Below, one piece after another: positions 7,743-62,738 of a stretch of DNA of 64,000 nt (the first letter of the stretch is position 1; every line of letters begins with the position of its first letter). The notes under the pieces were generated by a model. It was not told where the DNA came from, made no database searches, and saw only the letters and a list, made by a program, of their open reading frames with translations. The translations under genes and the position numbers were made by a program. Source of the DNA: Antedon mediterranea (taxonomy: Eukaryota; Animalia; Echinodermata); contig NC_092671.1 in the NCBI RefSeq assembly GCF_964355755.1, positions 39,566,304 to 39,630,303 on the forward strand. Direction: 5' to 3'.

Positions 7743-7759
7743 TTCCATATATATGTTCT

Positions 7760-14431: not shown

Positions 14432-14506
14432 TATATAAGAAGTAGACATGTAATGGACGGCACTTTCGTCTTCGAACCTTCAGGTTATGCTGCATCAAAG
14501 GTATGT
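14432..14506 (+). promoter_or_regulatory. Putative amylase-1 core promoter and non-coding first exon
   Basis: TATATAAG at 14432, Inr-like gcACTTT ~30 nt downstream, AAG|GTATGT donor at 14501. The amylase ATG sits right after an acceptor (tttag|cATG), so an upstream exon is expected. Confidence 0.6.
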
Positions 14507-41511: not shown

Positions 41512-41630
41512 TATATAAAACAGAATCGTAGACTAGTTGACAGAAGTTATGATAGAACTTCTAGTTCTGTCATAGTTGAGATCAATAGTCTTCACTCACC
41601 GACGTGTTTGCAACAGTCAGCACGGTAAGT
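41512..41630 (+). promoter_or_regulatory. Core promoter and non-coding exon 1 of His-rich gene 1, with 5' hairpin
   Basis: TATATAAA at 41512; AGTTATGATAGAACTT at 41545; stem TGATAGAACT/AGTTCTGTCA; donor G|GTAAGT at 41625; acceptor ttcttcag at 42820. Confidence 0.75.
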
Positions 41631-42823
41631 TGAACAAGTATTTAATTTATTTCATTTCAATAAATATTTCAGTGTATTTAAAATAAATACCCCAGGGAAG
41701 AAGTATTTAAAAGCGATAATTAATAAATTATAGCAATCATATTTATTTGAAATTCATAGACAAATATGTATTAAAGTTTATCGTTTTGGAATAATAACCT
41801 CAAATTATGTTACCTCTCTTTATAATGATGAATGATAAAATAATATTAAACACTATGACATCCATATAGGTACAGGTATGTTATTATTTAGTCATTGCTT
41901 TAAGTACCATCTATACGAACAAATAATGAAGGTATGGGTGCAATCAGATGAAGTTTGCTATACATAGATTAGTCACAAAGTCATATATACCGATAAAACT
42001 ATTAACCATTACACTGTATTTCCAAACTTCTAGGCCTATTGAGTTTGTTACTCGTCTTTCGCAAGAATTATATTTTGTTATCTAAATAAATAACGATATT
42101 AAATCTCGTCGTAGCACGGACACCATTTGCAATTCATATTCTCTTTAGTTCGTTATGTTACTCATGTAGGCTTAGGCCTACGGTACTTATACCATTTTGT
42201 ATTCCATGAATTTTCAAATTTCTTCTCCAACATACTGATGTATTCAGACAAACATTTTAGCATAATAAATAAATACACAGGTTAATGTGTGTCTACACGA
42301 TACCTGATGGCTAGTTGATTTAAAAGTAACAAAACCATTGAAAGGGGTTTGACGTATCACAACCTTTTTTACACTGAAAGTTTTGGAAAATAAGGCAAAC
42401 AGAACCTTATACCAAAGCAAAAGTGAATCAGATCAGAGCGGACATTCGGACATTCGGACACAACATTTTAATATTATTATTAATATAATATATTAATAAT
42501 ATTATTAATATCAATGAATTACATAAACATTAATTATTTCTAATCAAACATCAAATGATAACAGCAAGCATTCGCATAAATATATCGGTATTTAATAACA
42601 GTCCTTATACCATCTTAACTTTAATATGTAGGCTATTATTGTACTGATTATTGATTATTATATTTTTATATGAGAAATGGTTCTCGAAACTCGAATTTCA
42701 GACTGTTTGTATCGTTATTTAATGCTTTGTTTATAATGTATCCGTATTTTTTAAATTATACATGAAAGTATTTATACAGTATTGTAACTTATTAATTAAT
42801 AATTGGTTTGTATTCTTCAGAAA

Positions 42824-45800
42824 ATGAAGGTGTTTCTGTTAGCCGCGCTGTTGGGGTGCGTGTTGCTCCTGCAAGTACGCGCTGAATCGCAGTCGTCTGA
42901 CCTGCAGGACGATCAAAATGAAGTCAATTCTCTTGACCTGAAGGTAAACCCAGATTTGGAATCAGCTGACACCAGTGAAGTCGACAAAGACATGTTGGCC
43001 TCATCAGGTTTAGATAACGCACAAGAAATTAGTAAAAGATGTCGGCGACGATCCTTTAGACGCCGTTACAGACGTCGATTTCGTTGCCGTAGACGACGTT
43101 ACAGACGTCGAATAATTAGACGTTCTCGACGACGATACAAAGTACGACGCCTCCGAGTCCAATATTATTGGCGCAGTGGTCGATTCTACAGACTGTGTAG
43201 ACGTGGTCGTCGTACGTATTGGCGTCGTGTAACTTTCAGATGTCGAGGTGGACGTTTCTACTGCCTATACCGACATGGACGTCGACGATATTGGCGCATA
43301 ATGCGTGCATACGTGCGTAACAGACATGTATATGTTCTTCGAGGACGTCGATATATCAGAACATCCACAGTGGTTTCCTCAAGTAGAATTGTCACAAGAA
43401 CCAGTACTGGTGGATATCTCGTTTGGCGTAACAGGCGTTTGTATTTCCGAGTTCGTTATGGGCGTCGTTGGATATGGCGTGTTGTTCGATACAGATGGAG
43501 CCATCGTCGACTATATTTCTATTGGGGAAGAAGATGGCGATTGGTAAGGTGCTACAAACGTGGGGGACGAATGTTCTTCTACCGCAATGGTCGCTACTAT
43601 ACCGGTGGCAGAAGAAGACCAGTGAACCTGTACTTCCGAGGACGACGTCTCTTCTGGACAACCGTCTACCGTGGACGAAGAACATGGCGTCCAGTTCGTT
43701 ATCGATGGATCCGTCATCGTCTATACTTCTACCCAACGTTTGGCCGTCATCGAAGATGGCGCCCTGCTCCAGTTTATTACCGCAACGGTTATATATATGT
43801 CTTCACCAATGGTCGTTACCGTCGTACTGGTACATACCACCCACTCAACCCAAGACGTATAAATATTAATCTTTACTGGCGTGGAAAAAGACTTTACTGG
43901 ACTACAATTTATCATGGACGAAGAGTATGGCGTCCCGTGCGTTACAGGTGGTCCCACCATCGTCTATATTATTACCCACTATTTGGTAGCCGTCGAAGAT
44001 GGCGTCTAGCACCGGTGTACTACCGCAATGGATATGTTTTCTTTTACCGAAATGGCCGCTATTTCAAACGAAGGTTCAGATTTCCTCAACCTCAAACAAC
44101 AGTGTTTTTGTTCTGGCGAGGCAGACGCCTATACTTCAGATGGGTATCACATGGTCGTGTTAGATGGCGAGTGGTGAATTATCGCTGGCGCAATCACCGT
44201 CTGGTGTACTACATGCCATTCGGGCCACATCGTGGCTGGCGTATTGCACCAACATATCAACGAAATGGTCACATTTATATCTACCACAACGGTCGGTATT
44301 TTATAAGTGGAGGCGGTCACCCACACGTCCCCCATAGACCAAGTCGTCCCATGTTTGTTTGGCGCGGTGGCCACCTGTACTATCGATATCGCCGTGGAAA
44401 CCGCTACTATTACCGTATTGTGACAACCAAACGATACCATGGACGGTACTTTTATTACTACGGCAACACATGGCACATGCTAACGTACTACTACATGAAT
44501 GGAGTGTCATACTACTTCCATAATGGTCACTACCTTGTCAAGCATAAAACAGTGATAAAGTATCATCATCATCATCATTATCATCACCATTATCACACAA
44601 GGTTCCATACTAAAATAGTCAAACATCATCACCATCACCATCATGTAAAAATACACAGGATACACCATAACAAATATATCCACCATAAGATAGTACACCA
44701 CCGTGTGGTAAAGCACTACCGATATAAAACAATACACCACCATCATATAAAGCATGTTCACCATCACATACATCACCGTCGTGTTGTAAACCATCTTCGT
44801 ATTAGACACCACTACATCAAACACCATAAATACTATACCCATCACCATCACCATTACCGGCACGTGCACCATCGCCATCACCATCATGTTTACAGAAATC
44901 ACGTGATAACTCGTCATATCAAACGATATCATCACCGATATATCACTCGACTTCATCATCATTATCGTCATTTCCATCACGTAGTAAACCATCATAAGTA
45001 CGTCAACCATGTGAAATATAGACACAGATACGTGAAACACCATCGACACTTTACACATCATCACCATCACTACCGCCATGTTCACCACAAGGTTCACCAC
45101 CATAGATATATAAATCATGTGCGCTACCGACACCAATATATTCGACGTCATCGACGCTTCACCCACCACCATCATCGACATTTCCACATTCACCATCGTA
45201 TACACCACCATAAATATATAAACCACGTCAGTGTACGACACGTGAACATAGTTCGTCATCGTCATCTTGTCCACAACCATCACCATTACCACCATTACCA
45301 TCACAGACACCATCACCATCGGTACATCAACCATGTTAGCACAAAACATATTTATGTAAAACATAACAGATACCTTACCCATCATCACCACCACTACCAC
45401 CATTTCCATCACAGAATACACCACCACCGGTATATCAACCACGTTATAAACCGACACAAATATATTCGACACCATGTCCACTTGACTCATCATCATCACC
45501 ATTACCATCACTACCATCACCGACACCACCACCATAAGTACGTCAACCATGTGTTGGTACGTCACAAGTACGTCAAACATAACAGATATCTGACTCACCA
45601 CCATCATAAATTCATTCACATTCATCATAGAATACATCATCACCGTTATGTCAACCATCTCCGTATACGTCATCGGTACGTGAAACACCACACGCACATC
45701 ACACTTCACCATCACCACCACTACCATATTCACCATAGGATCCATCATCATCGAATTGTCAACCATGTAATTACCCGCCATCACTACATCCGGCACCATC

Positions 45801-48800
45801 GTTACTTGACCCATCACCATCACCACTACCATCATATTCATCACCGCCTCCATCACCATCGGTACATAAACCATGTGATCACAAAACAACATTATATCAA
45901 GCATCATGTTCATATAACCCATCACCATCACCACTACCACCACATCCACCATAGATTGCACCATCACCGTACCTACACACACGTACTTACCCGCCACAGA
46001 TACATCAAGCACCACCGTTATTTCACCCATCACCATCACCATTACAAACATTACCACCACAGAATTCACCACCATCGTTACATTAACCATGTACTAACAC
46101 GCCATCGAAACCTGTACCGTCACCGACATGTGACCCACCATCACCATCATTACTACCATCATCACCACAGAATACATCACCACCGATATATCAACCACGT
46201 AATTACACGTAACATTTATATCAGACATCACAAGCATTACACTCATCACCACAACCGATTCATCCATATTCAACACCGAATCCAACACCACCGATATATA
46301 AACCATCTCCGTGTTATCTACAAATATCTCTACAAAAACCGTTACATTACACGTAATCATAAACAATACTTTAACATATACCACCGTATTAGGCATAACA
46401 AAATAATTAACCATCTTCGAATTGTTCATAGATATATAAGAACAAATGTGTACCGACATTACAACCATCATAAATACTTCCACTTGCACAAGCATTACCA
46501 TCACCACCGATACGTCAACCATGTCATAACACGTCATCGAAATATATACAGACACCGACACGTGACACACCATCACCATCACTACTACCATGTCCACCAC
46601 AGACTTCATCACCATAAATACATCAACCATATCTTGTACCGACATAAATACATAAAACACCACCGTTATCTGACATACCACCATCACCATTACGTACACG
46701 TACATCACCGTCTCCATCATCACCGTTACGTCAACCACGTGCTCACACGTCACAAGAATATATATCGTCACCGATGGGTAACTCACCACCATCACCATTA
46801 CCGACACATTCATCACCACAGACATCATCACAAATATGTTAACCATGTGATCACACGTCACCATAACGTTTACAGACATCATTACATCACGCACCACCAT
46901 CACCATTACCATCACATCCATCACCGACTCCACCATCACAAGTTTGTAAACCATGTGGTAATGCACCATCGCTATATTAAACACCATCGATATCTGACAC
47001 ACCATCACCACAAATTTATTCATATTCATCATCATATCCAACATCACCGATACGTTAACCACTTGAAAGTACGTCATCGGTATGTTAAACACCACAGATA
47101 TTTGACTCATCACCATCATAGAACAATCCATATCCACCATCGCATACATCATCACCGCACTATTAACCACTTGCTTGTAAGACACCATAATATAGTAACT
47201 CACCGCTACTTGACACACCATCACCACCACTACCGTCACATCCACCACAGAATCAATCACCATAAATACATCAACCATTTGCGAATCCGTCACAAATACC
47301 TATACAAACATCGATACTTGACGCATCACCATCATCACTACCACCACCATCACCACAGAATTCATCACCACCGTGTTATCAAACACTTAAGAATACAGCA
47401 TCGGTATATCAAGACTCACCAATACCTCACCCATCACCACCACCATTACCGCCATATTCATCACAGGATTCACCATCATCGTGTAGTGAACCATTTGCGT
47501 ATCAGACACAAATATATATACAAACATCGTCATGTGACCCACCATCATCACCACTATCACCATCACCACCACACGCACCATCATCATCGCTATGTAAACC
47601 ACCTTAAAATCAGTCACCGATACATAAGAACCAATCGGTACTTGACACATCACCATCACCACTATCACCACCATCATCACATTGTAAACCACCATCGAAT
47701 CGTTAACCACCTTCGTGTCCGACATCGATACGTGAAACACCACACATACCGTACCCATCATCACCACCATTACCATCACTACCACCACAGATTCCACCAT
47801 CACCGTTATATAAACCATGTGCGTACCAAACATGTGTATCATCGTCATCATCAATACCTAACTCATCACCATCACCACTATCACCATTACCATCATAAAC
47901 TGCATCACCACCGCTACATCAACCGTGTCATGGTGCATCATCACTACATCAGACGTAATCGCTACGTAACTCACCATCATCACCACTACCGTCACATTCA
48001 CCACCGACACCATCACCATCGATACATCAACCATATCAGAACCAAACATGTGAACGTATACCGACACCGATATCTAACCCACCACCACCATCGTACCATC
48101 CATCTGCATCACTGGCACCATCATCATCGGTACTTAAACCATATGCACGTGCGCCACAGGTACATCAAGAGGCATATCTACCGAACACGTCACCACCATC
48201 ACTACCGACATTACCACCACCATATTACCCATCATCGTACCGTGCATCATACTAAATTCCACTTGAAGACTATCTATCACCATAAATTTTTAACGCATCA
48301 CCACCATATCTTCAAGACTCTACACCATCACCATCATCATCACCGTACCATCCATCATCGACGAACCATCTACAAGTACAAATACCATCACCACTATAAA
48401 CATCATCACCACCACCACTACCACAAGCACGTGAGTTCATCGCATCATCATTTCCACATGGGATTCCATGGATCATCTTTGAACGTGTTCTTTAGCTGGC
48501 GTGGTGGACATATGTACCATAGAGTACGAATACACGGACGATACACATGGCAGATTGTCAGAACCCGTATGCGAAACCACCACATGTATTATTTCACAAA
48601 CGGTAGATGGTACATCGTTCCCAACTACACCCGTAATGGCCGCTTTTACTTCTATTTGGATGGTCGATACAGTTCCAATCCCATGCCATCCGGTGGCAGA
48701 TTTAGCATCCGATATTTCAGTACAAATGTAAGAATAATCTTCAGAGGTGGACGCATGTATTATCGCTATCCTTATGGCCGAGGCTATCGTCTACGACCCG

Positions 48801-49333
48801 TACGTTTCCGAAGAAGACACGGTCGCTTCTACTACTGGACCGGCAAAACTTGGCAATTCGTTCCTTTCTATAGAATCAACACAACTTACTTCTACTACAT
48901 AAATGGCCGATACTATCCATTCGGTGTCAGTGGTGGTAGTAGCAGCTACAGCAGCTTCAGCAGTGGAAGAATCTCTTTCCATAGACCATACGTATTCTGG
49001 AGAAGAGGTCGTTTCTACTGGAGAACAGTAAGAGGTGGTAAAACATATTGGCGTCCTCTTCGCTACAACCGTTACCGTGGTCACTACCGCTACTATTACG
49101 GACGACGATGGCATTGGGTTAATTACTACGTTAATGGAAACAGATACTACTTCTGGTTAAATAACCGTTACCATTCCGTTCCGTATAATTTCTCTCGTGG
49201 GTTCCATGGGTTCGGTAGATTTAGTCGTGTATACCGCTCATATGTTACAAGAACCGTTGGGCCAATCCACCGCCACTTCGTATCACATCGATATGGTCAC
49301 ATTAGACGATTTATTCATAGATTCCGTCGTTAA
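42824..49333 (+). CDS. Giant secreted His-rich, Arg/Tyr-rich repeat protein 1 (2169 aa), family not recognised
   Basis: Uninterrupted 6.5-kb frame. ATG at 42824 just after an acceptor; signal peptide MKVFLLAALLGCVLLLQVRA; acidic segment ending ISKR; 6+3 R/Y/W modules around a 36-aa His repeat core; aataaa at ~49442 and ~49530. Confidence 0.9.
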   Translation: MKVFLLAALLGCVLLLQVRAESQSSDLQDDQNEVNSLDLKVNPDLESADTSEVDKDMLASSGLDNAQEISKRCRRRSFRRRYRRRFRCRRRRYRRRIIRRSRRRYKVRRLRVQYYWRSGRFYRLCRRGRRTYWRRVTFRCRGGRFYCLYRHGRRRYWRIMRAYVRNRHVYVLRGRRYIRTSTVVSSSRIVTRTSTGGYLVWRNRRLYFRVRYGRRWIWRVVRYRWSHRRLYFYWGRRWRLVRCYKRGGRMFFYRNGRYYTGGRRRPVNLYFRGRRLFWTTVYRGRRTWRPVRYRWIRHRLYFYPTFGRHRRWRPAPVYYRNGYIYVFTNGRYRRTGTYHPLNPRRININLYWRGKRLYWTTIYHGRRVWRPVRYRWSHHRLYYYPLFGSRRRWRLAPVYYRNGYVFFYRNGRYFKRRFRFPQPQTTVFLFWRGRRLYFRWVSHGRVRWRVVNYRWRNHRLVYYMPFGPHRGWRIAPTYQRNGHIYIYHNGRYFISGGGHPHVPHRPSRPMFVWRGGHLYYRYRRGNRYYYRIVTTKRYHGRYFYYYGNTWHMLTYYYMNGVSYYFHNGHYLVKHKTVIKYHHHHHYHHHYHTRFHTKIVKHHHHHHHVKIHRIHHNKYIHHKIVHHRVVKHYRYKTIHHHHIKHVHHHIHHRRVVNHLRIRHHYIKHHKYYTHHHHHYRHVHHRHHHHVYRNHVITRHIKRYHHRYITRLHHHYRHFHHVVNHHKYVNHVKYRHRYVKHHRHFTHHHHHYRHVHHKVHHHRYINHVRYRHQYIRRHRRFTHHHHRHFHIHHRIHHHKYINHVSVRHVNIVRHRHLVHNHHHYHHYHHRHHHHRYINHVSTKHIYVKHNRYLTHHHHHYHHFHHRIHHHRYINHVINRHKYIRHHVHLTHHHHHYHHYHHRHHHHKYVNHVLVRHKYVKHNRYLTHHHHKFIHIHHRIHHHRYVNHLRIRHRYVKHHTHITLHHHHHYHIHHRIHHHRIVNHVITRHHYIRHHRYLTHHHHHYHHIHHRLHHHRYINHVITKQHYIKHHVHITHHHHHYHHIHHRLHHHRTYTHVLTRHRYIKHHRYFTHHHHHYKHYHHRIHHHRYINHVLTRHRNLYRHRHVTHHHHHYYHHHHRIHHHRYINHVITRNIYIRHHKHYTHHHNRFIHIQHRIQHHRYINHLRVIYKYLYKNRYITRNHKQYFNIYHRIRHNKIINHLRIVHRYIRTNVYRHYNHHKYFHLHKHYHHHRYVNHVITRHRNIYRHRHVTHHHHHYYHVHHRLHHHKYINHILYRHKYIKHHRYLTYHHHHYVHVHHRLHHHRYVNHVLTRHKNIYRHRWVTHHHHHYRHIHHHRHHHKYVNHVITRHHNVYRHHYITHHHHHYHHIHHRLHHHKFVNHVVMHHRYIKHHRYLTHHHHKFIHIHHHIQHHRYVNHLKVRHRYVKHHRYLTHHHHRTIHIHHRIHHHRTINHLLVRHHNIVTHRYLTHHHHHYRHIHHRINHHKYINHLRIRHKYLYKHRYLTHHHHHYHHHHHRIHHHRVIKHLRIQHRYIKTHQYLTHHHHHYRHIHHRIHHHRVVNHLRIRHKYIYKHRHVTHHHHHYHHHHHTHHHHRYVNHLKISHRYIRTNRYLTHHHHHYHHHHHIVNHHRIVNHLRVRHRYVKHHTYRTHHHHHYHHYHHRFHHHRYINHVRTKHVYHRHHQYLTHHHHHYHHYHHKLHHHRYINRVMVHHHYIRRNRYVTHHHHHYRHIHHRHHHHRYINHIRTKHVNVYRHRYLTHHHHRTIHLHHWHHHHRYLNHMHVRHRYIKRHIYRTRHHHHYRHYHHHITHHRTVHHTKFHLKTIYHHKFLTHHHHIFKTLHHHHHHHRTIHHRRTIYKYKYHHHYKHHHHHHYHKHVSSSHHHFHMGFHGSSLNVFFSWRGGHMYHRVRIHGRYTWQIVRTRMRNHHMYYFTNGRWYIVPNYTRNGRFYFYLDGRYSSNPMPSGGRFSIRYFSTNVRIIFRGGRMYYRYPYGRGYRLRPVRFRRRHGRFYYWTGKTWQFVPFYRINTTYFYYINGRYYPFGVSGGSSSYSSFSSGRISFHRPYVFWRRGRFYWRTVRGGKTYWRPLRYNRYRGHYRYYYGRRWHWVNYYVNGNRYYFWLNNRYHSVPYNFSRGFHGFGRFSRVYRSYVTRTVGPIHRHFVSHRYGHIRRFIHRFRR

Positions 49334-52300
49334 ATTTCTATCATAAACGACAACGTTTAGCAATCAAATGTATTAAACTACCAACAACCAATCCAAATAA
49401 TACAAACTATATGAGGTTCTTGTTTTGGCCAAAATAGAAAGAATAAAACTATTCAACAATATTTGATTTGTAAACAACAACCATTTGGAGGGATATATTC
49501 TCTTGTGTAGGAATAGAGAGATATTAAATAAAATAAAGTGAAACGAAACAAAATGCAATATTTGTCATTGTCTGTTTTCTGTGTCTGTCATTTTCAAGTC
49601 TCTGCCTCCCCTTCTCTGTCATATACTTCACTCACATTTCCAAATATAAGTTGATAATAAATAAAAATAAACACTATACTATGTATTGTGGAGATAAAAA
49701 AAACGATACATATACCGTATACGTGATACTCATAATATGAGGGGAAACATACGGGTTAAGCGGCCAACCCCTATTCATGATTGCAGAATCTTTAGAGGAA
49801 CCGACAGACGAAATAGTATATTTTTTCGTTTTTAGAATATGTGGTAGTGTAGTTACATATTACAGGTAAGTCGTTTATATTACACACTCATAACAAAAAT
49901 CGCTTTACAACATTTTGAGAAAAAGATACAAATTATTTTTCCTTTTCAATCATGACAATGTCACTTACCACAAGCTGGAAAACAATGAAAATGTCACATA
50001 ACATCATAAGCATGAAAACAAAAAGTTTTCTGAGCATGAGCAGAGTGATTTCAATGACTTGGGCGTATTTTCAATGGACACGTGTTGATACAACAAGTAT
50101 CAATGAGGGTGACTCAGTGACATGTAAGTAATACCCTGGCATGCAGGTAAAAGCCAATTGACAACAATTGAAAATCATCTGTCTCTTACAGTGAGTTCCA
50201 AACAACAAACGCATCCAACATGCATCATTTGACACATTTCTGTAACACCTTTTTATTATTTTTCTGAAAAGACATTCCTAACAAAAATACTGTGGAGAAG
50301 TCTTCATCAATTACTACAAACTCCTGATTCACGATATCAAAACAATGCAAGGAACTAGCTAAAACTAGTTACAGTAACTTTGTCAAATCAATATGTATTC
50401 TTCTCTTTCTAATCTTTTAGTCGGGAGAGCCATTTCGTTTACTGTAGGTATTTCCTTAAATTTATACAACAAAAATATACATAATGCAAAACAATATGGA
50501 CACAAAGAAGCAAGATAAAATCGGCATTATAATTTTTAGAGAGGAGCTATTTTTTATTTTTATTTTTATTATTATTTATTTATTACAGATCATATAACTT
50601 GTCTATATCTACAATAAAACCTAAGGAGACAAAAGCAAAGTAACTCCTAATAGGAGTGTCAACTGATATTGTTTGTCCGTAGTGTTAAAATAATGTATTG
50701 TCCTTCATTCGTTTCAAGGGAAAGCTTATAATGGGTGTCTGAATAGAGGTGTCCCCTGGATAGGAGGTGGTGGGGTGCTACTGTATAACGTTGAAATATT
50801 GTTGCATTAGAGTCATACAACATATTGCTATACTGTTGGTGTTCGACAAATATCCAAAACAGCGACACAGTACTGGTATAATTTTACTGTAATAATTTTA
50901 AGTTGAATATAATAAATAAAGTATTATAGAAGGGCCTACAACATAAATGTTATTCTTTCTTTTCATTTAAAATTTTGTTTCCCTTAAAAAACGTTCACAC
51001 TGTGACACAAACGGTGATTTCATGACTAAAATTCTGTCTACTATCAAACTGGTAGTCATATACCCAAATATGGTAATGATGTGACATCATCATGTCCATA
51101 TATGGTCACACATTTTTTGTCACATCAAGTTTGAGTGTTATACAGAGCTTCAAATATTATTTGCTTACATTGTAAGTTTTTAAAAAAATGTATGTATATG
51201 CATACAAAAAGTCATGATCGTCAATGTCACTGGTTTCTCAGAACCAGTTACCTCACTGGTTTCTCAGAACCAGTTACCAATATGTTGTTACTTTTGTCAT
51301 AGCTATGCACCCAAGAGCTTGCTTATTCGCAGAGTTTCAATAATATTTTACTGTAATAATAATCCCTTTTTAAAATTATTCTAATTCCACGTATTAGTGT
51401 AAAAATTAATTAGGTGAAAACAAATTTTACTTGAATGAACCGAGCTAAGTTTATGCTGTATAAAGAGGGACGTGGCTCGACAGATGGGCAAATGACACTT
51501 AAAAACACTTGTTTAGTTTCGTATAAATATTGCCATCTCTACCATATGTTACAAGTTTTAAGTAATGCTTTATAAACATCATAACGCATTCTTTTTTTAA
51601 AGGTTTTTTTGTATTTTCATATTTGTTGTAACTTTACTTTGTGAACTAATGTAGAGGCCCAATGATACTAAGGTCGTATCTGTAAGAAGCATCCGAGTTA
51701 AATATTGAATAGATGGCGTCGACAGGCCTACTGATAGATAGTGACACAAATGCAAATGTATAGTCATAGGTTATGAGGAGCTCCACCTTTTAGTCTATAT
51801 AGTCAACAACCTTGAATCCTCCTCCTCTCATTAGCTATCGTCAAACATCTCTAACATCACATTATAGCTATTAAATAAGACATTGCTGAATGTACCATCC
51901 TTTAATTAAATTCTTCTTGAATCATAATATTGATACTCATTTTTATATAAGACAAAAATACTAATATTCATTTTTGTCTGTAGTTCGTTGATGAACCTTT
52001 AGTGGGTTGTGACCCGGTCTTGTACTGAGGACTACTTGACATCTATAGATATTACACAACATCTGGACATATATTAGGCCTTCTCATTAGAATTTTAGAT
52101 ATTTTGGATTGGGTCTGAGGGGAAGACTGTTTAGTTTTATTTGTAAATTGGTCAACTTATCTCATTTTCCACCTTAGTTAACTATTTATCATCTTCTTTT
52201 AAAGTAACTTATTTTGTTTGTTTTTTTGTTATTTTGATTTTGAATATTTTCTTATTGTTGTTCGGGTTTTTAAGCTTTGCTTATGTTTAGTACCCTTTTC

Positions 52301-52854
52301 CATAACATTTTGATGACATATTGTTTCCTTATAACTTGTTCATGTCTCTTATTTTGACTGTCTATTACTCTTCTCCGTCTGGTGCTACTTTGATTCAATT
52401 TTACTGTGTTTTAAAAAAAAAAAAATCTTTATATATTTTTTTATTTTTGTAAATCCAAAGGTAAATTACTGAAAAATGACTATTCAGTGGGTATTAGTAG
52501 CTGGATTCCAATGGAGAAATAAAATAAGCAAAAAGCTAAATCAAAACGATAAAATAAAATAGCCAGAAAAATTAGCAGAGCTTTCGGGCAAGACTAGCCC
52601 TTTAACAGTGCAAGTGAGAGTACTTGGACAGAATTGAGAATATAAAGCAGACAAGCGCTGCTTGAGTGGACTAGAATAAAAAAAATAAAAACAAAGGAGG
52701 CACAGGCTGGTTAATAGAGGGTGGAGAGAGTAACAGTAACAAACAATGGTAGATATAAACAATTTAGGAAAATGGAACTTTCGAGAAATTCGAGACTCGC
52801 TTTATAAATTTAACCATTACAAATGACATACAGTAAATTAATCATGGCCAGTTA

Positions 52855-53375
52855 AGTATAATTAATAGAAAACTAAACTAGAGGGTACTCCGAGAGTACA
52901 AACCTCAGCCTCAGTATAATTAATAGAAAACTAAACTAGAGGGTACTCCGAGAGTACAAACCTCAGCCTTAGTATAATTAATAGAAAACTAAACTAGAGG
53001 GTACTCCGAGAGTACAAACCTCAGCCTTAGTATAATTAATAGAAAACTAAACTAGAGGGTACTCCGAGAGTACAAACCTCAGCCTTAGTATAATTAATAG
53101 AAAACTAAACTAGAGGGTACTCCGAGAGTACAAATCTCAGCCTTAGTATAATTAATAGAAAACTAAACTAGAGGGTACTCCGAGAGTACAAACCTCAGCC
53201 TTAGTATAATTAATAGAAAACTAAACTAGAGGGTACTCCGAGAGTACAAACCTCAGCCTTAGTATAATTAATAGAAAACTAAACTAGAGGGTACTCCGAG
53301 AGTACAAACCTCAGCCTTAGTATAATTAATAGAAAACTAAACTAGAGGGTACTCCGAGAGTACAAACCTCAGCCT
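52855..53375. repeat. 58-bp tandem array, 9 copies
   Basis: agtataattaatagaaaactaaactagagggtactccgagagtacaaacctcagcctt. Confidence 0.97.
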
Positions 53376-53892
53376 ACTGTAAAATTTCCTTACATAAAAT
53401 GTCACCGGAAAATATCTATATATTTTTACATTTTTTTTTAATTAGTTGTAAGTGTAAATAGGCTAACTGCACACTACAAAGTTGTGGATGAGAGTTTGGT
53501 GTAATGGTTATGTATCCAGCCTCTCACAGTTGAGATCGCTGGTTTAAGCCCCGCTGAGGTTTTTTTTTGTGGACCTTGATCTTTGACCCTGACCCTTCAA
53601 AATTTAACCACAATTACATGATGAGTCATTGGTCTTTGTGGATAAGTTTGGTGAGAATCGGATAAAAACTGTGGTCTCTAGGCAGTAAAATAGGTTTTTG
53701 TTAGTTGTGACCTTGACCTATGACCTTTTCCCTTCAAATTCGAACTCGTCCGAGCTTTTGGGGTATAGATCATTGTGGCCAAATTTGGTGAGAATCGGAT
53801 AAAAACTGTGGCCTCCAGCCTGTTCACAGACAGACAGACACACACACAAACATACAGGGGTGAAAATATAATCTCCTTGGCGGAGGTAATAA
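53339..53892. mobile_element. Helentron/DINE-like non-autonomous element
   Basis: Left end actaga-gtactc/gagtac-aacctcagcc; tgacctt subrepeats; (GACA)n tract; right end ctccttggcggaggtaata. Confidence 0.6.
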
Positions 53893-54042
53893 CTAGAAAA
53901 TGTATAATACCGTTGTAGTCTTACTGTTGTTGAAGCAAGTAAGCACGTTCACACTGAACCTGGATTGGTTGCCGGATAAAAAATGGCTTCTATACCGTGT
54001 ACATTAGAATCGTTCATACGTTTTGTACAAAACGAAAACTAA

Positions 54043-54192
54043 AACTCTGTCTACACTATTAAACTATTTTGACAAAAAAAAGTGTGATGTGCCCAAATAT
54101 GATAGTGATATGCCCAAATATGGTAGTGATATGATCATCATCATGTCCATATATGGGCACATCACATACAGTTTGATAGTGTAGACAGAGCT
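54043..54192. mobile_element. MITE family with TIR ctctgtctacactatcaaact; other copies at ~20620, ~25820, ~39108, ~51030
   Basis: ctctgtctacactat...tagtgtagacagag; shared core catcatcatgtccatatatgg. Confidence 0.75.
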
Positions 54193-54922
54193 TTAAAATA
54201 ACCCGGAGTTTTCATCAAATTTTCTCCAAAGTCGGGCTCAGGAACGATAATGTCAAACACCGACAATATACGTTCATTCAAATCTGATTCGATGCCTGAA
54301 ACCACTACCGTAGTAGTAAACGTAATGTAATAAAAATAACCAATTTGGAGTGTTCATCATCATCAAAAACAATGAAATGAAGTTTTAAAAAGAAATCAAC
54401 AGGTTCATTTTTATTCACGCTATAGTATGGTTATCTTCTGTAATGTACGAGTTCTTTCAAAAACTCAAACTGGTTTGAATGAGTGTAGACGAAATCTTTC
54501 TATATGACAACTGACGACACAGGAACAAGTCAATTGTGCGCATGCGGGGAAGTTGGAACATGCTCTATATTCGTCTACACAGTTTTAATTGTTTTCATAC
54601 TGTAGTCTATTGGTGGTAGGTCATCAGTTTTAATCAAGCGAAAGCTTCCTAAAACTCCGGGCAAAGTACATTACATTTTAATATTTTCAAGAAAAAAATT
54701 GAAAACAAACAACATAGACCTATCTTCATTTAGTGCATTTTATTTCGAATGCTTTTAATCGATATTGAACATTTTCCTCAAATTTATAAACAATATGATT
54801 TGACAATATCACTGGATATTTTTACTGTATTTTTCAGAATTATTACCATTTATGGCTTTTGATCTTATTCCAGCGTTGAATATATTTAGAAATGATTATT
54901 TGCTATCTAGATATTATATTCT

Positions 54923-57900
54923 TTAATAGGAATAGGATGATGAACTGGAGGAAGAGTGCCAGCTACCACCACCAGAACCACCGGAGCTGGAACTGGAATG
55001 AAAAGATGAAAATCCACCGCTTACGAAGTGTCCGCCTCCAGACACGCCGCCAGTTTGAATGTAACGTCCGTTGTGAAGGTAATTCAAACGCCCATTTTTA
55101 ATGTAACTGCGCATAAGCATCCATCTAGCGGTTCGGCCGTTTTTCCATAAGAAGTAAAAGCGACCATGACGTCTTCTATACTTGACAGGGCGCCATCTGT
55201 AACGGTGATTGCCAAACTGCAGACGGGCGTAGAAACGTCCGTGCCTCCAGTACATGGTGGCGCTTGTTCTGATCACACGTGTTCTGAATGATGAGATTCT
55301 AGCCCGATAATATCGACCATTGTGTAAGAAGTAATAGTACCCACCGCTTGTGTAGCTTCTTACTATGCTCCATCTACGACTTCTGTTACGCGCGGGCAAT
55401 GCGTACAAAATACCATTTCGTCGACGGTACGTTACTCTAATAAGGGTAGTACGCCTACCACGACGGTATTTGTAGTATAGAACATTATTTCGCATAACAT
55501 ATGGGGTGTATCGGATTCTAAACTTCATATGACGGGGATGTGTTCGATAACGGCCATGGGAAAAACTATAGTAACGGTTATTCATTCGATAAAATCTCAT
55601 CAAATGCCATCTGCGATTCCAGAGGAAGTAGTAGCGACCGTGACGTTTACGGTAGTTGACTGGTCTCCAGCTGGGTCGTCCTCTTGGTCCTCTTACAGCA
55701 TAGTAGAATTTTCCACCTCTCCAGTAAAATTGTCTTGGGTAGTTGGACTGCCTAAATATAACTTTGTTATATCGGCCATTTGACCAATAGTAGTAAACAC
55801 CTCTGCGTCTGTAAAACATAGTGAACACCCAAGTTTTACCATTCCAGTAGAACAAACGACCATGTTGTCTGCGGAATCGGACGGGTCTTAGTCGGCGTCC
55901 AAATCTGTAGTAGAGTCGGTTTCCACGCCAATAGACATGGCAAAGGCTGGGGTTAAAACGTCTCATTCGTGGCCTATATTGGGGCTGTAGATAATAACGG
56001 TTATTGAACCAGTAGTAATAGCGACCGTGGTTGTTATAGAAGTTTACAGGGCGCCAAGTGTAACGACCGTGGGATGGCCAGTAATAGTAGAATCGTCCAT
56101 GAATGCGGCGATAACGCACTGGTCGCAACATGTAACGACCACCTCGTCGGACGTAATAGTACAATCGATTATTTTTCCACATAATAAATGTGTTGCGTTG
56201 AATGTAGCCAGGGCGATATCTAACCATGTAGTGACCATTATTCCAGTAATAGTATCCACCATTGAGGTTGTAGGAAGTCACATAGTGCCAGGTGTTATTG
56301 TAAAAATAACTTAGGCGACCGTGGTGCTTTCGGTAACGAACAGTGGTCCATACGTAGCGGTTGCCCCGTCGAACACGATAGTACAAACGTCCATGTCGCC
56401 AGGAAATATTAGCTGAATAAGAGTAGGTATGGTGGTGTACATGACGGTAATGGTGGTGGTGATGGTGAAGATGATGTGTTTTGTGCACGTGTTTGGTCAC
56501 TCTTCGTACGTGATACTTGTGTTTGACGTGGTAGTGATGGTGATGACGGTGTACGATGTGTCGATGGTAAACATGCTGGTGATGGATGCGGTTCACGTGT
56601 TTGTAGACGTTTTGGTGATGGTACTTATGGTGTACTTTATAGTGGTGATGGTAATGATGGACTCGATGCCTGTGGTGCACGTGTTTGTAATGCACTATCG
56701 TGATTCGATGTGTGATTATTTTGTGGTGATGACGATGGTGCGTATGGTACACGTGATGGTGATGGTGTACGTAATGACGATGGTGTAGATGTCGGTGATG
56801 TGTAACAAGTATGTTGTGTCTTATGAGACGATGGTGGTATCTATGGTGCACGTGGTGGTAATGGTGGTGGTGATGGATGTTGTGATGGTGGTGTACATGG
56901 CGATGATGCGTTGTTAGAATATGATGATAGATGTGGCGATGGTGGAATCTATGATGAACATGGTGGTAGTGATGATAATGGTGGATGCGATGGTGATGGT
57001 GCACGTGTCGGTGGTGCGTAATTGTGATGTGGTGGTGGATGGTTCTGAGATGGTATCGGTGATGGGCGTGGTAGTAATGATGGTAATGATGTATACGGTG
57101 ATGATGGTGGATGTGACGATGATGTCTTACGTGAATGTGGTGCACAATTGTACGCAGATGGTATCTATGGTGTACGTGGTGCCGGTGGTGGTAGTGATGA
57201 ATATGATGGTGGTGATGCACATGTCGGTGGTGTGTTGTGACAATATGGTGGACAACGGTACGGTGATGGAATCGGTGGTGAGTGTGATACACGTGATGGT
57301 AATGGTGGATATGATGATGATGCTGCATGTGACGATGATGCGTTACAGTAACATGATGCAGCACGGTTCTAAGGTGATATTTATGATGTACATGGTAGTA
57401 ATGATGATAGTGGTGGATGTTGTGACGATGGTGGACATGTCGGTGATGTGTTATACGAATATGATGAAGGACTGTTTTCAAATGGTATTTGTGATGTCTG
57501 TGGTAATAATGGTGATAATGGTGGACATGATGGTGGTGATGGAGATGTCGGTGGTGTGTAACGGTCACGTGGTGATACACAGTACGTGTGTGGTACCTAT
57601 GGTGGATATGGTAATTGTGGTGGTAGTGGTGGATTCGGTGAATGTGGTGAAGATGCCTGTGATGTGTTATACGAATATGATGGTAAATGGTACGGTGATG
57701 GTATCTATGGTGGGCGTGGTAGTAGTGATGGTAGTGGTGAACGTAATGCCTGTGGTGCAGGTTTTTGTGGTGCGTAATATGAATGTGATGTACGATTGTT
57801 CGGAGATGGTATCGGTGATGAGTGTGGTAATGGTGATGGTAATGATGGATGTAATGCGTGTGGTACAGGTGTCGGTGATGAGTTATATGTATGTGATGAG

Positions 57901-60900
57901 CCACATATCGGTGGTGGTATCTGTGATGGGTATGGTAGTAGTGGTGGTAATGGTGAATGGCATGTCGATGGTGCAGATGCTTGTGGTGTACCACGTTAAT
58001 ATGGTGATAAATATGTCGGTGATGGTATCGGTGATGGGTATGATAATGGTGATGGTAATGATGGATCTGGTGGAAGTGATGGACATGTTTATGATGCAAC
58101 ACATTTATGTGGTGGTAGACGGTACGGTGGTGGTATCTATGGTGGATATGGTAGTAGTGGTGGTAATGATGGATATGGTGATAATGATGAATGTGTCTTC
58201 TGTGGATCACATTAATGTGATGTAGGACCAGACGATGATAATATCTGTGGTGAGTATGGTAATAGTGATGATAGTGATGGATATAGTGTCGATGATGTAA
58301 GTGTCGGTGATGTACTATAGTTATATAATTGTATATATTTCTGTGGTGGAATCTATGGTGAACATGGTAATGATGATGGTGGTGATGGATATAATGGCGA
58401 TGGTATCTATGTAGGTGATGGATAGTCTTGATGTGGGTAACTATATACCGAGTGATATACCTATGGTATCGATGATAGGTATGTATATAGTGGTGAATGT
58501 AATACCGATGGAAAACGTCTTTAATGTGGTTAACGGTAACATGGACATACACTATTCGTTTACGGTAATTATGGTGCACGTGGTAGTAGTGGTGGTAGTG
58601 ATGAATGTAATGCTTGTGGTATATATGACGATGGTGTGAATAAGTTATATAGTGATATACATTTCGGTGATGGTATCTATGGTGGACATGGTAATAATGG
58701 TGATAATGGTGGATGTGGTGTCGGTGGTGCAAATGACGGTGATGCACAACAGTTATATGGTGATATATGGTGCGATGGTGGTACCTGTGGTGAACATGGT
58801 AATAATGGTGGTAGTGATGGATAGCGTGACGGTGGTGGACATGCCTGTGGTGGGCAATGTGGATATGATGGTAAATGGTACGATGGATATACCGATGGTG
58901 TCGGTGGTAGTAATGATGATAATGATGGATGTAGTGACGATGGTGTAAATGACGATGGTGAATTATTTTGATATGGTGGTAGATATGGCGGTGATGGTAT
59001 TTATGGTGAACATGGTAATAGTGGTGATAATGATGAACGTAGTGGTGATGATGAAGGTGGCGATGATGTGTTATTTTAATGTGATGCCTAATATGTCTAT
59101 GGTGGTATCTGTGGTGAATATGGTAATAATGGTGATAGTGATGGTGATAATGTCTGTGGTGCAGATGACGACGATGGAGGACGTGGATATGGTGTACCAC
59201 GGTACGAAGGTGGTATCGGTGATGAACGTGGTAGTAATGATGATAGTGGTGTACATAATGCGTGTGATGTACGTGTCGGTGGTGCAGAGTGTGTATATGG
59301 TGGACTAAGAGTCGGTGATGGTATCTATGATGGACATGGTAATAATGGTGATGATGGTGTATACGGTGATGATGGTGCACGTGTTTATGGTGCACTATAC
59401 GTATATGGTGATAGAAGGTACGGTGATGATATTTATGGTGGACATGGTAGTAGTGGTGGTAGTGGTGAATACGATGGTGATGATGCACGTGTCTATGGTG
59501 GGTCACGTGGATATGATGGTAAACACGTCGATGGTGGTACCTATGGTGAATGTGATAGTAATGATGGTGGTGATGGATATGGTGATGATGGTGACGGTGA
59601 AGGTGGTGCGTTATCAAACGATGGTGATATATGATACGATGGTGGTAGCGGTGATGAGTGTGGTAATAATGATGATAGTGGTGGTGGTAATGACGATGGT
59701 GTAAGTGACGGTGATGATTTATTGTGATATGGTGTCTAATGGTATGCAGGTGGTATCTATGGTGCACATGGTGAATATGGTGATAATGATGAATAGTGTG
59801 TCGGTGGTGCACGTGCTTATGGTGATTCACACGAATATGGTGAAGGACTGTGTGAAGGTGATACCGGTGGTGAACATGATGCCGATGGTGGTAATGGTGA
59901 ATATTATGGTAATGGTGTCGGTGTCGGTAATGCGTAACATGAATATGGTGTATTATGTTACGGTGATGATACCTATTGTGAATGTGACGGTAATGGTGGT
60001 GATGGTGAATTATATGCCTATGGTATATATGCCTGTGGTGATTATAACGGAGATGATGGTACACATGACGGGTGTGGTATCGATGAGTCACGTGATAGTG
60101 ATGATGATAGTGGTGTCTTAGGTGAGTATGGTGCTTATGACGGTGTAAAGTCACGTAAACATGACGATTCTTGATAACATGATGATAGCGATGATGGGTG
60201 TGTATCAGATGCTTATATTTGTGGTGATAATGATGATGGTGAAGATGCACGTGTCGAATGCGCACCTTTGTTTTGTAGTGATGCACGTGGTGATGGTGAT
60301 GCCTATGCCTGTGTATAATATGTGTGTGCGTCAAATAATGACCATGGTTGTAATAGTAGTTGCGGCCGTTCAAATAGTAATAACGGACAATATGCCATGT
60401 TTTGTGGCCTCCGTAACCCCACCAAAAGTAGTAGCGGCCATGCACTTTTCTGTAACGGACCAGGCGCCAGGTATAGCGGTTGTTATGATACCACCGCATG
60501 TACAGACGTCCGCCACGGAATCTAAAACGAAGAGTTCCGATCGAAGGCCTAAAGTTGTAACGACCATGGTTCCAATAGTATGTGCGTCCATTGATAGTGT
60601 AATAGCGAACAATGGACCAGATATATCGGTGGCCTACGCGATGGTAGTAGTATGTGCGTCCATGATATCTTCTATATTTGACAGGACGCCAGCGGTAACT
60701 GTTTCCAACACGATAGCGTAAGTAGAGGCCATTGCTACGCCAGTAAAAATGAATCTGTCCATTTGTGCGATAGTAGGTTACACTAACGCTAGGAAGCCTT
60801 AATCTTGGGTAATATTGGTAGCGACCATTTCTGAAGATGAACATTCGTCCAAATATTCTAATATTATGAACCAAAGACCAGATGTACCGTCTTCCTACAC

Positions 60901-61513
60901 GTCTCCAGTACAAGAATCTGCCACCGGATCGTCTGAATCTCACCACTTGCCATACATATCGGCCACCTCTCCGTCGAAAGATGTACAGACGGTTGTTTTT
61001 CCACTGGAAGAATGTTTTGTATCGACGGGGACGGTAGGAGGAAGTGCGATATCTTCCATGACTCCAAAAGTACCTTCGTCCTCTAGATGTAAAGGCTCTT
61101 ACCAAAACCCATCGGTAACGGCCTCCCCAGCGCATGAAAACATAAATGCGACCACGGACTACGCGTTGTCTTTTAAGGTATCGGTTGAAGTACCGACCGC
61201 CTCTTCGCCAGCGGACATACATACGACCACCACGTCTGTAAAACCAGTAACGTACCCGGTAAATCTTTTTATAACGTCTTCTTCGTGAAGGTAGACGATA
61301 ACGTACTACCTTGGTGCGCGTATGAGTAAGTGAATACTTGTCTACGTCATCGACATTATTGGACGATTCACTCACATCTGGTCTGCTGGCGGACAGAATA
61401 TCTTTGTCGACTTTATCGACAGCATCTTCAGTTCGACTTACTGGTGCTTCGGAGAGTGAACTGTGTACTAAGACGATGCACCCAAACAGAAAAACCAACC
61501 GAATCACCGACAT
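54923..61513 (-). CDS. Giant secreted His-rich, Arg/Tyr-rich repeat protein 2 (2196 aa), paralogue of protein 1
   Basis: Signal peptide MSVIRLVFLFGCIVLVHS; acidic segment with VDKDIL; 4+6 R/Y/W modules around a 36-aa His repeat core; Gly/Ser tail; acceptor ttttgacag 9 nt before the ATG. Confidence 0.9.
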   Translation of the reverse strand: MSVIRLVFLFGCIVLVHSSLSEAPVSRTEDAVDKVDKDILSASRPDVSESSNNVDDVDKYSLTHTRTKVVRYRLPSRRRRYKKIYRVRYWFYRRGGRMYVRWRRGGRYFNRYLKRQRVVRGRIYVFMRWGGRYRWVLVRAFTSRGRRYFWSHGRYRTSSYRPRRYKTFFQWKNNRLYIFRRRGGRYVWQVVRFRRSGGRFLYWRRVGRRYIWSLVHNIRIFGRMFIFRNGRYQYYPRLRLPSVSVTYYRTNGQIHFYWRSNGLYLRYRVGNSYRWRPVKYRRYHGRTYYYHRVGHRYIWSIVRYYTINGRTYYWNHGRYNFRPSIGTLRFRFRGGRLYMRWYHNNRYTWRLVRYRKVHGRYYFWWGYGGHKTWHIVRYYYLNGRNYYYNHGHYLTHTHIIHRHRHHHHHVHHYKTKVRIRHVHLHHHHYHHKYKHLIHTHHRYHHVIKNRHVYVTLHRHKHHTHLRHHYHHHYHVTHRYHTRHVYHHLRYNHHRHIYHRHIIHHHHHYRHIHNRYHHRNIIHHIHVTHYRHRHHYHNIHHYHHRHHVHHRYHLHTVLHHIRVNHHKHVHHRHTIHHYHHIHHVHHRYHLHTIRHHITINHHRHLHHRHYHHHYHHYYHTHHRYHHRIIYHHRLITHHLHRHHHHHIHHHHHYYHIHHRYHHRRVYHHIHVTHHRHVHHHHRIHHYHHYYHVHHKYHHRTFYHHIRIVHHKHVHHHHRIHHHHHYYHVHHRYHHRLLVHHIHTLHHRHVHHTHYVHHYHHYYHVHHRYHLRTVVHHIHVLHRRHLHHRHYHHHYHHYYHIHHRYHHRHIRHHIKITHHRHLHHHHYVHHYHHYYHVHHKYHHRHIYHHIKIIHHRHLHHRHYIHHYHHYYHRHHRYIHRTIYHHIHIAHHRHVHHRHAIHHYHHYYHVHHRYHHRTIYHHITVVHHRHLHHRHHIHHYHHYYHVHHRYHHRNVYHYITYSHHRHIYHKHYIHHYHHYYHVHHNYRKRIVYVHVTVNHIKDVFHRYYIHHYIHTYHRYHRYITRYIVTHIKTIHHLHRYHRHYIHHHHHHYHVHHRFHHRNIYNYITIVHHRHLHHRHYIHHYHHYYHTHHRYYHRLVLHHINVIHRRHIHHYHHIHHYHHYYHIHHRYHHRTVYHHINVLHHKHVHHFHQIHHYHHHYHTHHRYHHRHIYHHINVVHHKHLHHRHAIHHYHHYYHTHHRYHHRYVAHHIHITHHRHLYHTHYIHHYHHHYHTHHRYHLRTIVHHIHITHHKNLHHRHYVHHYHHYYHAHHRYHHRTIYHHIRITHHRHLHHIHRIHHYHHNYHIHHRYHTRTVYHHVTVTHHRHLHHHHHVHHYHHYYHRHHKYHLKTVLHHIRITHHRHVHHRHNIHHYHHYYHVHHKYHLRTVLHHVTVTHHRHMQHHHHIHHYHHVYHTHHRFHHRTVVHHIVTTHHRHVHHHHHIHHYHHRHHVHHRYHLRTIVHHIHVRHHRHIHHHHRIHHYHHYYHAHHRYHLRTIHHHITITHHRHVHHHHRIHHYHHYHHVHHRFHHRHIYHHILTTHHRHVHHHHNIHHHHHYHHVHHRYHHRLIRHNILVTHHRHLHHRHYVHHHHHVYHTHHRHHHKIITHRITIVHYKHVHHRHRVHHYHHHYKVHHKYHHQNVYKHVNRIHHQHVYHRHIVHRHHHHYHVKHKYHVRRVTKHVHKTHHLHHHHHHYRHVHHHTYSYSANISWRHGRLYYRVRRGNRYVWTTVRYRKHHGRLSYFYNNTWHYVTSYNLNGGYYYWNNGHYMVRYRPGYIQRNTFIMWKNNRLYYYVRRGGRYMLRPVRYRRIHGRFYYYWPSHGRYTWRPVNFYNNHGRYYYWFNNRYYLQPQYRPRMRRFNPSLCHVYWRGNRLYYRFGRRLRPVRFRRQHGRLFYWNGKTWVFTMFYRRRGVYYYWSNGRYNKVIFRQSNYPRQFYWRGGKFYYAVRGPRGRPSWRPVNYRKRHGRYYFLWNRRWHLMRFYRMNNRYYSFSHGRYRTHPRHMKFRIRYTPYVMRNNVLYYKYRRGRRTTLIRVTYRRRNGILYALPARNRSRRWSIVRSYTSGGYYYFLHNGRYYRARISSFRTRVIRTSATMYWRHGRFYARLQFGNHRYRWRPVKYRRRHGRFYFLWKNGRTARWMLMRSYIKNGRLNYLHNGRYIQTGGVSGGGHFVSGGFSSFHSSSSSGGSGGGSWHSSSSSSSYSY

Positions 61514-62621
61514 GGTTCTTAACTGTCAAAAAAATTTAAAAAAATAAAATTAAATTACTGTATGTAATATTACTAAAGTTTCGACAATATACTACTATAC
61601 TGTAGGTATACTACTGTTGCTAAGGCTACTTTTATTTACTAATACTACCACACTTAAAATACCATGCGTTTTATTATTTGTCAATACTAAATGACAGTTG
61701 CAAGCTTGAAAATACATTTGGGCATAATCGCATTTTTACTATCCGGACAAATTGTTATTATATAAAAAAAATAGTTTAATAGTGCATTTCTTTAGTTGTA
61801 AATTTAGTAGTTTAGTAGTAGTTTAATCATGGATGGCGTAAATGGAGAAACAACGACTACACATCAAAGGGACGGTCAAAGGGACGGTCACATCAAAGGG
61901 ACGGTCAGTGGTATGCAATACCAAACTGCCAAACCCGAATCAAGGTAAGTAATTACTAAATATGATTGTACTCTAAATGACTAGACGTATTCCACTGAGG
62001 AAATAGGCCTGTAATAAATACAGTACCCTATATCCTATATTAATTAATTAAATAATAATGTAGTAGTATTGCAAGTAATCTAATAGCTTACTACTTATTG
62101 TTTTTATACAATATTTTTTGAACTAGAAAACACAAAGCTCTTCGAGGTTCCAAACGAGTTCTTATTATTTTTGGACAGAATTTGTTGTAATATACTGCAA
62201 TTTGGTGTGGACTATGTTCAATATACATAAATATCTTATGAAATTTAATTTGGCCGAAATATCTATACAATTGTGTATTACTGTGTATATAGACGCTAAA
62301 TAAGCATACATTATGTTTATATACGCCTGTATCTATCTTACTCTGCGTACACAAGTTCTAGTTAACGACCATTATCGCTTTGCAAACCAATCTAAACAAG
62401 ATATTTACTAAGAAATTTAAAATATTTATTTTCAAACTTGCGATTTGTTATTTTACTTTCTGTTTCCTAAATAAACTATTCCTGTCATCGTTTATAATTA
62501 CAATTCCAGTATATAATTGATGGCAAGGATCCTGCATAAAAAAGTTTACAATTATGTTTTCGCAGGACCCTTTTACATAAAAACATAAAACATAGCAATT
62601 ATAAATATTTGTTTTAGTTGA

Positions 62622-62738
62622 ACTTACCTATGTCAGATAGGAACCAGCAAGTTTGTCTCAGTTGATCTGTGTTCTGATAGAACTTAGTGGAAGTTCTATC
62701 ATAACTCCTGGTAAAATTGCTAATTGTTCATTTATATA
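62622..62738 (-). promoter_or_regulatory. Core promoter and non-coding exon 1 of His-rich gene 2, with 5' hairpin
   Basis: Minus strand TATATAAA 62738-62731; AGTTATGATAGAACTT from 62706; perfect 11-bp stem within 62675-62701; donor AG|GTAAGT at 62627. Confidence 0.75.

Follow-up and report, generated by a model that had tools for sequence, protein, structure and literature searches.

Histidine-rich proteins are usually loose and disordered. Nvjp-1 of worm jaws and the DgHBPs of squid beaks are small, His- and Tyr-rich secreted proteins, Gly-rich with short, loose repeats, whose setting is ascribed to pH and metal. Silk-like structural proteins include the mussel byssal preCols, which carry His-rich cross-linking domains (PMC4944945), and the Transformer (185/333) proteins of sea urchins, 220–354 amino acids (aa) long, are mosaics of Gly-rich elements with a leader in exon 1 and a His-rich region (PMC8268236). 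The crystallin with the highest refractive increment tabulated in the available text of PMC4047532 reaches 0.2077. Here we describe two convergent genes, gene 1 and gene 2, in a stretch of 64,000 nucleotides (nt) of the feather star Antedon mediterranea (contig NC_092671.1, positions 39,566,304 to 39,630,303; hereafter the window). Each encodes a protein of about 280 kDa with a His core built from 36-residue units and enclosed by arrays of a second repeat, the flank domain. In our preferred reading, to which we give about an even chance, they form an old paralogue pair of large, basic, predicted-secreted proteins that would likely make up a dense material of beta strands stacked in register and would probably be produced together. 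An exact register across 1,260 residues of Gly- and Pro-free sequence with 41–47% His is uncommon for His-rich proteins.

Whole proteins contain 27–30% His, 11–13% Tyr and 0.8% Met. The absence of Pro and Gly from the cores, claimed in an original prediction made from the letters of this DNA, holds for Pro in both genes and for Gly in gene 2 (0/1299), and fails for Gly in gene 1, which has 2/1309 at its C-terminal edge. Sequence and charge map give both proteins a hydrophobic leader, then a short acidic piece, then an Arg-rich stretch; signal peptides were judged by eye, and cleavage of the pro-piece is inferred. After the pro-piece, Arg plus Lys total 429 in the chain of gene 1 and 365 in that of gene 2, His numbers 578 and 657, and each chain has a single acidic residue; the net charge is thus strongly positive, at about +365 to +430. 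The leader, the acidic piece, the flank-domain family and this extreme charge do not figure in the original prediction. Neither full protein matched a Pfam family at E up to 1.

Like silk-like proteins, the pair is predicted to be secreted, is of low complexity, places a long repeat core amid other domains and offers His for cross-links, but it has no Gly, Ala, Pro or collagen repeats, its His core is in exact register with almost no acidic residues, and no sequence relation to them was found. With Nvjp-1 and the DgHBPs it shares the character of His- and Tyr-rich secreted proteins; it differs in size, in its strongly basic charge and in a core that is nearly devoid of Gly where theirs is Gly-rich. 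The likeness to Transformer extends to an echinoderm source, a leader, a His-rich region and a two-exon gene, and membership of that family was rejected, since the pair is about 2200 aa long, with one coding exon, 0–2 Gly in the core and no element mosaic. Reflectins and gamma-crystallins are likewise rich in Arg, Tyr and further residues that refract strongly (PMC11118217 and PMC4047532), and the computed refractive increment of the pair is about 0.21 (0.2095 and 0.2106, against 0.195 ± 0.001 for 120 amylases), as obtained from a per-residue table of which the Arg and Lys values were checked against PMC11118217; unlike them, the pair is Met-poor, predicted to be secreted and without a Pfam family. 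Bacterial choline- and glucan-binding repeats share a layout of aromatic hairpin repeats and turn up repeatedly when the flank domain is compared with known folds, always with weak scores, but these families were listed by Pfam for none of the 19 flank domains at E up to 1.

A flank-domain profile run against 1.84 billion representative sequences matched two proteins at E up to 0.001. The first, XP_071965392.1, is an uncharacterized protein of Antedon mediterranea, matched in two stretches (profile E 4.7e-11; BLASTP E 5e-11) with 43% identity to a flank domain over 69 aa. It has a hydrophobic N-terminus, a short pro-like piece, an Arg/Cys-rich stretch and two flank-domain copies, but it is 342 aa long, Cys-rich and of no described function. 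By profile match and leader layout, both genes are assigned to the unnamed flank-domain family of this protein. The second match (E 7e-4), a repetitive propeller-like protein, was rejected as chance. Word-based homologue searches accepted 0 of 455 and 0 of 3226 candidates, a weak negative, as the second search also missed XP_071965392.1. Anneissia japonica gave no match, which is not used as evidence because orthologues were not found in the other annotated proteomes searched. Neither exact sequence was present in the collection searched, and an atlas search gave no usable match, which speaks neither for absence nor for novelty. A literature search that covered few subscription journals found no description of these proteins; the pair is apparently undescribed, and the flank domain was found here only in feather stars.

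Register of the His cores

The identity autocorrelation of the cores has its maximum at a lag of 36 residues, at 0.56 in gene 1 and 0.64 in gene 2; the highest value at any lag in 200 shuffles was 0.25 and 0.30, respectively. When the cores are cut into ungapped 36-residue rows, shift 0 beats the other 35 shifts in 35 of 37 rows per gene (rows 2–36), with weak rows at the ends (rows 2, 35 and 36 of gene 1 at 5.2, 5.8 and −1.6 bits; rows 2 and 36 of gene 2 at −21 and −0.4 bits). Autocorrelation and rows together bear out the original prediction, which had placed the cores at 44540–48470 and about 56430–60330 and given them a 36-residue period, with about 35 units in gene 2. Freely varying unit lengths, a possibility raised alongside it, were not found: the register is free of insertions and deletions (indels) in those 35 of 37 rows, whereas the 19 flank domains show six different internal gap patterns.

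Units were compared over rows 3–35, 33 per gene. As protein they are on average 57% identical in gene 1 and 64% in gene 2; as DNA they average 60% and 63%, with maxima of 75% and 78%. Within a column, two His codons agree at 0.506 and 0.501, where chance gives 0.500, in line with the variation of codons between units that had been remarked originally, and codon identity between units shows no trend with distance. The comparison of synonymous with protein change proposed in the original prediction thus finds codons saturated and protein conserved. Because synonymous sites are saturated, yet the units remain this similar as protein and free of indels, the results support a 36-residue period kept by selection on the protein. 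Homogenisation of the DNA does not explain it, given the saturation and the missing trend with distance, and the units are old and without ongoing homogenisation. Two neighbouring His residues share a codon in 118 of 285 cases in gene 1 (p 0.004) and 115 of 269 in gene 2 (p 0.02), fewer than the expected half. Gene 1 also has fewer pure His-codon runs of at least three than expected (18 against 27.5, p 0.01); the shortage is less clear in gene 2 (7 against 11.4, p 0.07). Such a deficit of identical neighbours is what would be expected if slippage-prone runs were removed.

In a sequencing run of another sample from another study (X1), overlapping contigs cover the gene 2 core from end to end with no gap, and one contig is colinear with 44095–47228 of gene 1. 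Among the 11 core differences listed, a set that excludes one in gene 1 and two on a gene 2 contig, eight are synonymous, where 18–26% would be expected (p about 0.001 or less), and the remaining three are conservative (R–K, I–L and K–R). Contig depth in X1, which was not used for ranking, is high over both open reading frames (ORFs) and small over unique intergenic bins. An X1 joint from 45348 to 44837 was rejected as an artefact; it contains letters of the skipped repeat 45807–45950.

The spacing of His had been given in the original prediction as about every five residues (36 = 7 × 5 + 1), and this was not supported. In column permutations (18 harmonics by five residue classes, p values uncorrected), the 5.14-residue harmonic of His has p 0.14 in gene 1 and 0.24 in gene 2, and a signal at that spacing was seen only for the aliphatic residues of gene 1 (p 0.046). 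For His, the harmonic at 6.0 residues has p 0.015 in gene 1 and 0.055 in gene 2, and that at 3.0 has p 0.009 in gene 2.

Common descent and core length

The cores of the two genes are homologous in a single register (hhalign probability 87%), and the pair is shown, by its joint promoter layout, intron position, register and central band, to descend from a whole-gene duplication. The duplication is old, because the flank domains of the two genes are only 25–54% identical. Eleven of the 36 core columns are gene-specific, and the nearest neighbour lies within the same gene for 66 of 66 units. The flank-domain tree is mostly unresolved, with 2 of 18 branches supported.

The central band is a local loss of His. 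The His-poorest window of 72 residues, scanned with the outer 100 positions at each core end excluded, lies at 0.461 of the core length in gene 1 and 0.456 in gene 2. Rows 17–18 hold 8 and 6 His in gene 1, where most other rows hold 13–17, and 10 and 11 in gene 2, where the other rows in 3–35 hold 15–20. Chance would make the His-poorest row pair coincide with a probability of 1/32 (3/32 within one row).

Upstream, a 17-nt motif is identical in both genes and has two matches in the window where 0.04 would be expected (Table 1). It lies inside a hairpin, about 30 nt past the TATA box, and has been kept despite saturated synonymous sites. The gene 1 hairpin has 12 base pairs (z −2.61; 2 of 200 shuffles fold as well) and the gene 2 hairpin 11 (z −3.02; 1 of 200). 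A 5' stem-loop coordinates the chains of collagen I, and the present arrangement is reminiscent of it; motif and hairpin may act as an element of the 5' RNA or, at the DNA level, as a palindromic site. Rfam returned only sub-threshold snoRNA rows at both hairpins. The common TATA spacing, motif and hairpin, together with the central band, suggest a co-regulated pair under shared control. At gene 1, the fit of an X1 contig begins at 42820, the predicted splice acceptor, and is preceded by 67 non-fitting letters, a hint of a spliced transcript if X1 is RNA, as we guess.

Between matching anchors the cores measure 1322 aa in gene 1 and 1312 aa in gene 2, which confirms the matched length of the original prediction. 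The number of core units is equal, whereas the flank copy numbers differ (6+3 in gene 1, 4+6 in gene 2). On this one gene pair, we lean towards selection having acted on core length. Across the genes the flank arrays are complementary in size, which accounts for the near-equal total lengths of the proteins; antiparallel chains would set a long N-terminal array opposite a long C-terminal one.

Proposed material and its alternatives

Residue classes alternate along the units. Small polar residues (T/N/S/Q), one of five classes, occupy alternate columns (p 0.003 in gene 1, 0.024 in gene 2), and the contrast in parity between aromatic and aliphatic plus basic residues, picked after looking, has p 0.001 and 0.012. 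The alternation stays in phase along each core: Tyr shares one parity with the small polar residues, aliphatic and basic residues take the other, and the parity is opposite between the genes. His is found on both parities and has no two-residue alternation of its own. Such a pattern fits beta strands, be it in a solenoid, a cross-beta ribbon or an extended strand. The flank domain is a separate element: the core is unrelated to it (hhalign probability 0.02%), and its profile finds 19 copies in the six frames of the window, all within the two genes. One flank domain was modelled as eight short beta strands joined by hairpins, with a predicted local distance difference test score (pLDDT) of 88. 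Fold searches with the flank domain gave nothing at E up to 0.001 (best Foldseek E 0.9), and its best structural Z of 3.3 (root-mean-square deviation 4.0 over 66 residues) is at background level; this is not taken as a sign that the fold is new. WW-type and other single weak Pfam matches of the 19 flank domains were rejected as chance.

In the preferred reading, the signal peptide and pro-piece would be cut off at basic sites as the chains pass along the secretory path. In an acidic granule, the roughly 600 His of each chain would be protonated and the chains would repel one another, until a rise in pH or the binding of Zn or Cu lifted the repulsion and let the units stack in register. One strand face would carry Tyr, Thr, Asn and His and the other Ile, Val, Leu, Arg and His, as the observed alternation has it. 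The Trp/Tyr/Arg hairpin domains at both ends may bind polyanions or neighbouring chains, and the equal core length and central His-poor band could fix the length of a rod or the overlap between rods. A His/Tyr/Arg beta architecture possibly switchable by pH or metal would be of interest for materials design.

The function of crinoid saccules has been debated since the 1880s. We guess that the material might be their refractile content, a possible but doubtful site; otherwise it would be an adhesive, a coat or ligament material. One account (bioRxiv 10.1101/2024.08.14.607903) describes the saccules of Antedon bifida as abundant and highly refractive, with a function that is not known. They also stain with sense RNA probes (PMC9793003), circumstantially as expected of a polycation. 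The boldest combination, in which the pair is the main saccule content, a 1:1 length-matched, His-switched beta heteropolymer of very high refractive index co-produced by means of the 5' hairpin, is improbable. If true, it would add a new optical or granule-building protein class and offer a first molecular handle on saccules, for whose content the two genes are now named candidates.

Several points weigh against the preferred reading. X1 is only guessed to be RNA, and XP_071965392.1 has flank domains without a His core. A model of four core units is all beta but of low confidence (pLDDT 50; predicted template-modelling score 0.37); the ordered beta core of the original prediction finds support in the two-residue alternation of both genes. 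A complex prediction for four units of each core, run without alignments, scored 0.00 and counts neither for nor against a heteromer. Neither strand face is purely hydrophobic, and residues suited to turns (Gly, Pro, Asp) are missing, an uncommon state for a solenoid. Strong refraction would follow from any His/Tyr/Arg-rich composition and does not point to saccules alone. As for the matched length, which is based on one gene pair, it may in part be inherited: units so little alike as DNA (60–63%) should rarely recombine. When the units of one gene are compared singly with those of the other, no clear diagonal or antidiagonal emerges beyond the central band.

The alternative that survives best takes up this last point. 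The cores would be ordered homopolymers whose array formed once; after duplication of the gene, the units would have diverged too far to recombine, which fixed their number. The register would be selected and the number not. Inheritance of core length is made possible by the whole-gene duplication, and the low DNA similarity of the units fits it, but 11 of 36 columns have since become gene-specific across nearly all units. That change calls for exchange between units after the duplication, which usually alters their number, or for selection that acted in parallel on about 33 units. The flank arrays, moreover, did change in copy number, whereas unit count and central band did not. We hold this account to be a substantial contender, although not the favoured one; it touches only the step of rod length or overlap and is compatible with the other readings.

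A less probable alternative is a load-bearing or adhesive extracellular material outside the saccules, such as egg or larval cement, tube-foot glue, cuticle or ligament fibres, hardened by His–metal bonds and Tyr cross-links. This would be the chemistry of the preferred reading at a different site, and either protein may act by itself. Most hardened proteins of the known His-rich kind are Gly-rich, with loose repeats, whereas these cores have 0–2 Gly and exact register. The layout of a repeat core between ordered ends is nevertheless silk-like, and the Tyr and His contents, together with the His-rich cross-linking domains of byssal preCols (PMC4944945), speak for it.

Defence appears still less likely. 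Here granules would store the proteins as polycationic precursors, to be set free or to be cleaved at their many basic sites into Arg/Trp/Tyr hairpin peptides and His-rich metal scavengers, with microbes or predators as the target. In its signal peptide, acidic pro-piece and cationic hairpins the pair does resemble antimicrobial precursors, but defence has no need for 35 units in exact register or for equal core lengths, and the X1 differences show purifying selection and not diversification. The high net charge and the His-rich region of the Transformer immune proteins (PMC8268236) favour it, against which the pair has neither a Gly-rich region nor an element mosaic. It is very unlikely that the pair is an artefact of assembly or that it serves as a disordered, low-complexity reserve of nitrogen or metal, for which the low-confidence core model could be cited. 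DNA identity between units never exceeds 78% (which argues against a collapsed or expanded satellite), X1 contigs are colinear over the gene 2 core and over 44095–47228 of gene 1, and storage needs neither exact register nor near-invariant columns.

Feature coordinates and neighbouring elements

Table 1. Features of gene 1 and gene 2, in positions of the window.
Feature	Position	Strand	Remark
Gene 1 TATA-box-like element	41512..41519	+	GT donor 112 nt after TATA box
Gene 1 predicted non-coding first exon	41540..41624	+	start approximate
Gene 1 copy of 17-nt motif	41545-41561	+	
Gene 1 hairpin	41548-41574	+	
Gene 1 predicted 5' untranslated-region intron	41625..42820	+	GT..AG borders in sequence
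Gene 1 coding sequence	42824..49333	+	one exon, 2169 aa
Gene 1 predicted signal peptide, acidic pro-piece, Arg-rich stretch	42824..43150	+	signal peptide ~aa 1-20; pro-piece to Lys-Arg (aa 72)
Gene 1 N-terminal array	43151..44551	+	6 flank-domain copies (~70-aa Trp/Tyr/Arg/Gly beta-hairpin)
Gene 1 His core	44552..48478	+	aa 577-1885
Gene 1 in-register block	44624-48403	+	35 x 36 aa
Gene 1 central His-poor units	46244..46459	+	rows 17-18, register intact
Gene 1 C-terminal array	48479..49189	+	3 flank-domain copies
Gene 2 TATA-box-like element	62731..62738	-	GT donor 109 nt after TATA box
Gene 2 predicted non-coding first exon	62628..62710	-	start approximate
Gene 2 copy of 17-nt motif	62706-62690	-	
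Gene 2 hairpin	62701-62675	-	
Gene 2 predicted 5' untranslated-region intron	61523..62627	-	GT..AG borders in sequence
Gene 2 coding sequence	54923..61513	-	one exon, 2196 aa; convergent with gene 1
Gene 2 predicted signal peptide and acidic pro-piece (start), Gly/Ser tail (end)	within 54923..61513	-	
Gene 2 N-terminal array	60317..61261	-	4 flank-domain copies
Gene 2 His core	56420..60316	-	aa 400-1698
Gene 2 in-register block	60223-56444	-	35 x 36 aa
Gene 2 central His-poor units	58388..58603	-	rows 17-18, register intact
Gene 2 C-terminal array	55049..56419	-	6 flank-domain copies

Between the two genes, 50632–54615 holds several very high-copy repeats, as judged by contig depth in three sequencing runs. 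Satellite arrays with units of 132, 55, 17 and 58 bases lie at 8839–11839, 14464–15456, 22718–23535 and 52855–53375, respectively.

Two alpha-amylase genes with few introns are found at 16685–18351 and 34849–37109 (plus strand). At its C-terminus the second is extended by about 200 aa that match no Pfam family and are also covered by other deuterostome amylases. The neighbouring amylase has an exon with 93% identity to an amylase of Antedon mediterranea, in an alignment that takes in 60% of the query; full-length alignments reach at best 55–59%, that with Anneissia japonica included.

A Cys-rich, putatively antistasin-like stretch at 20214–20630 (minus strand) lies beside a 1-kb array of 3- and 21-base repeats at 20867–21871, whose translation is rich in Ser/Thr if read from the minus strand and rich in Asp if read from the plus strand; the two are possibly exons of a secreted protein. 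A single ORF at 2346–4415 (plus strand) combines an integrase, an SH3 domain and an OTU protease, and by this layout is presumably a Ginger-like or Gypsy-derived transposon. At 6412–7764 (minus strand), a reverse transcriptase is joined to a GIY-YIG endonuclease in a Penelope-like arrangement, of which a shorter second copy lies at 31027–31551 (minus strand).

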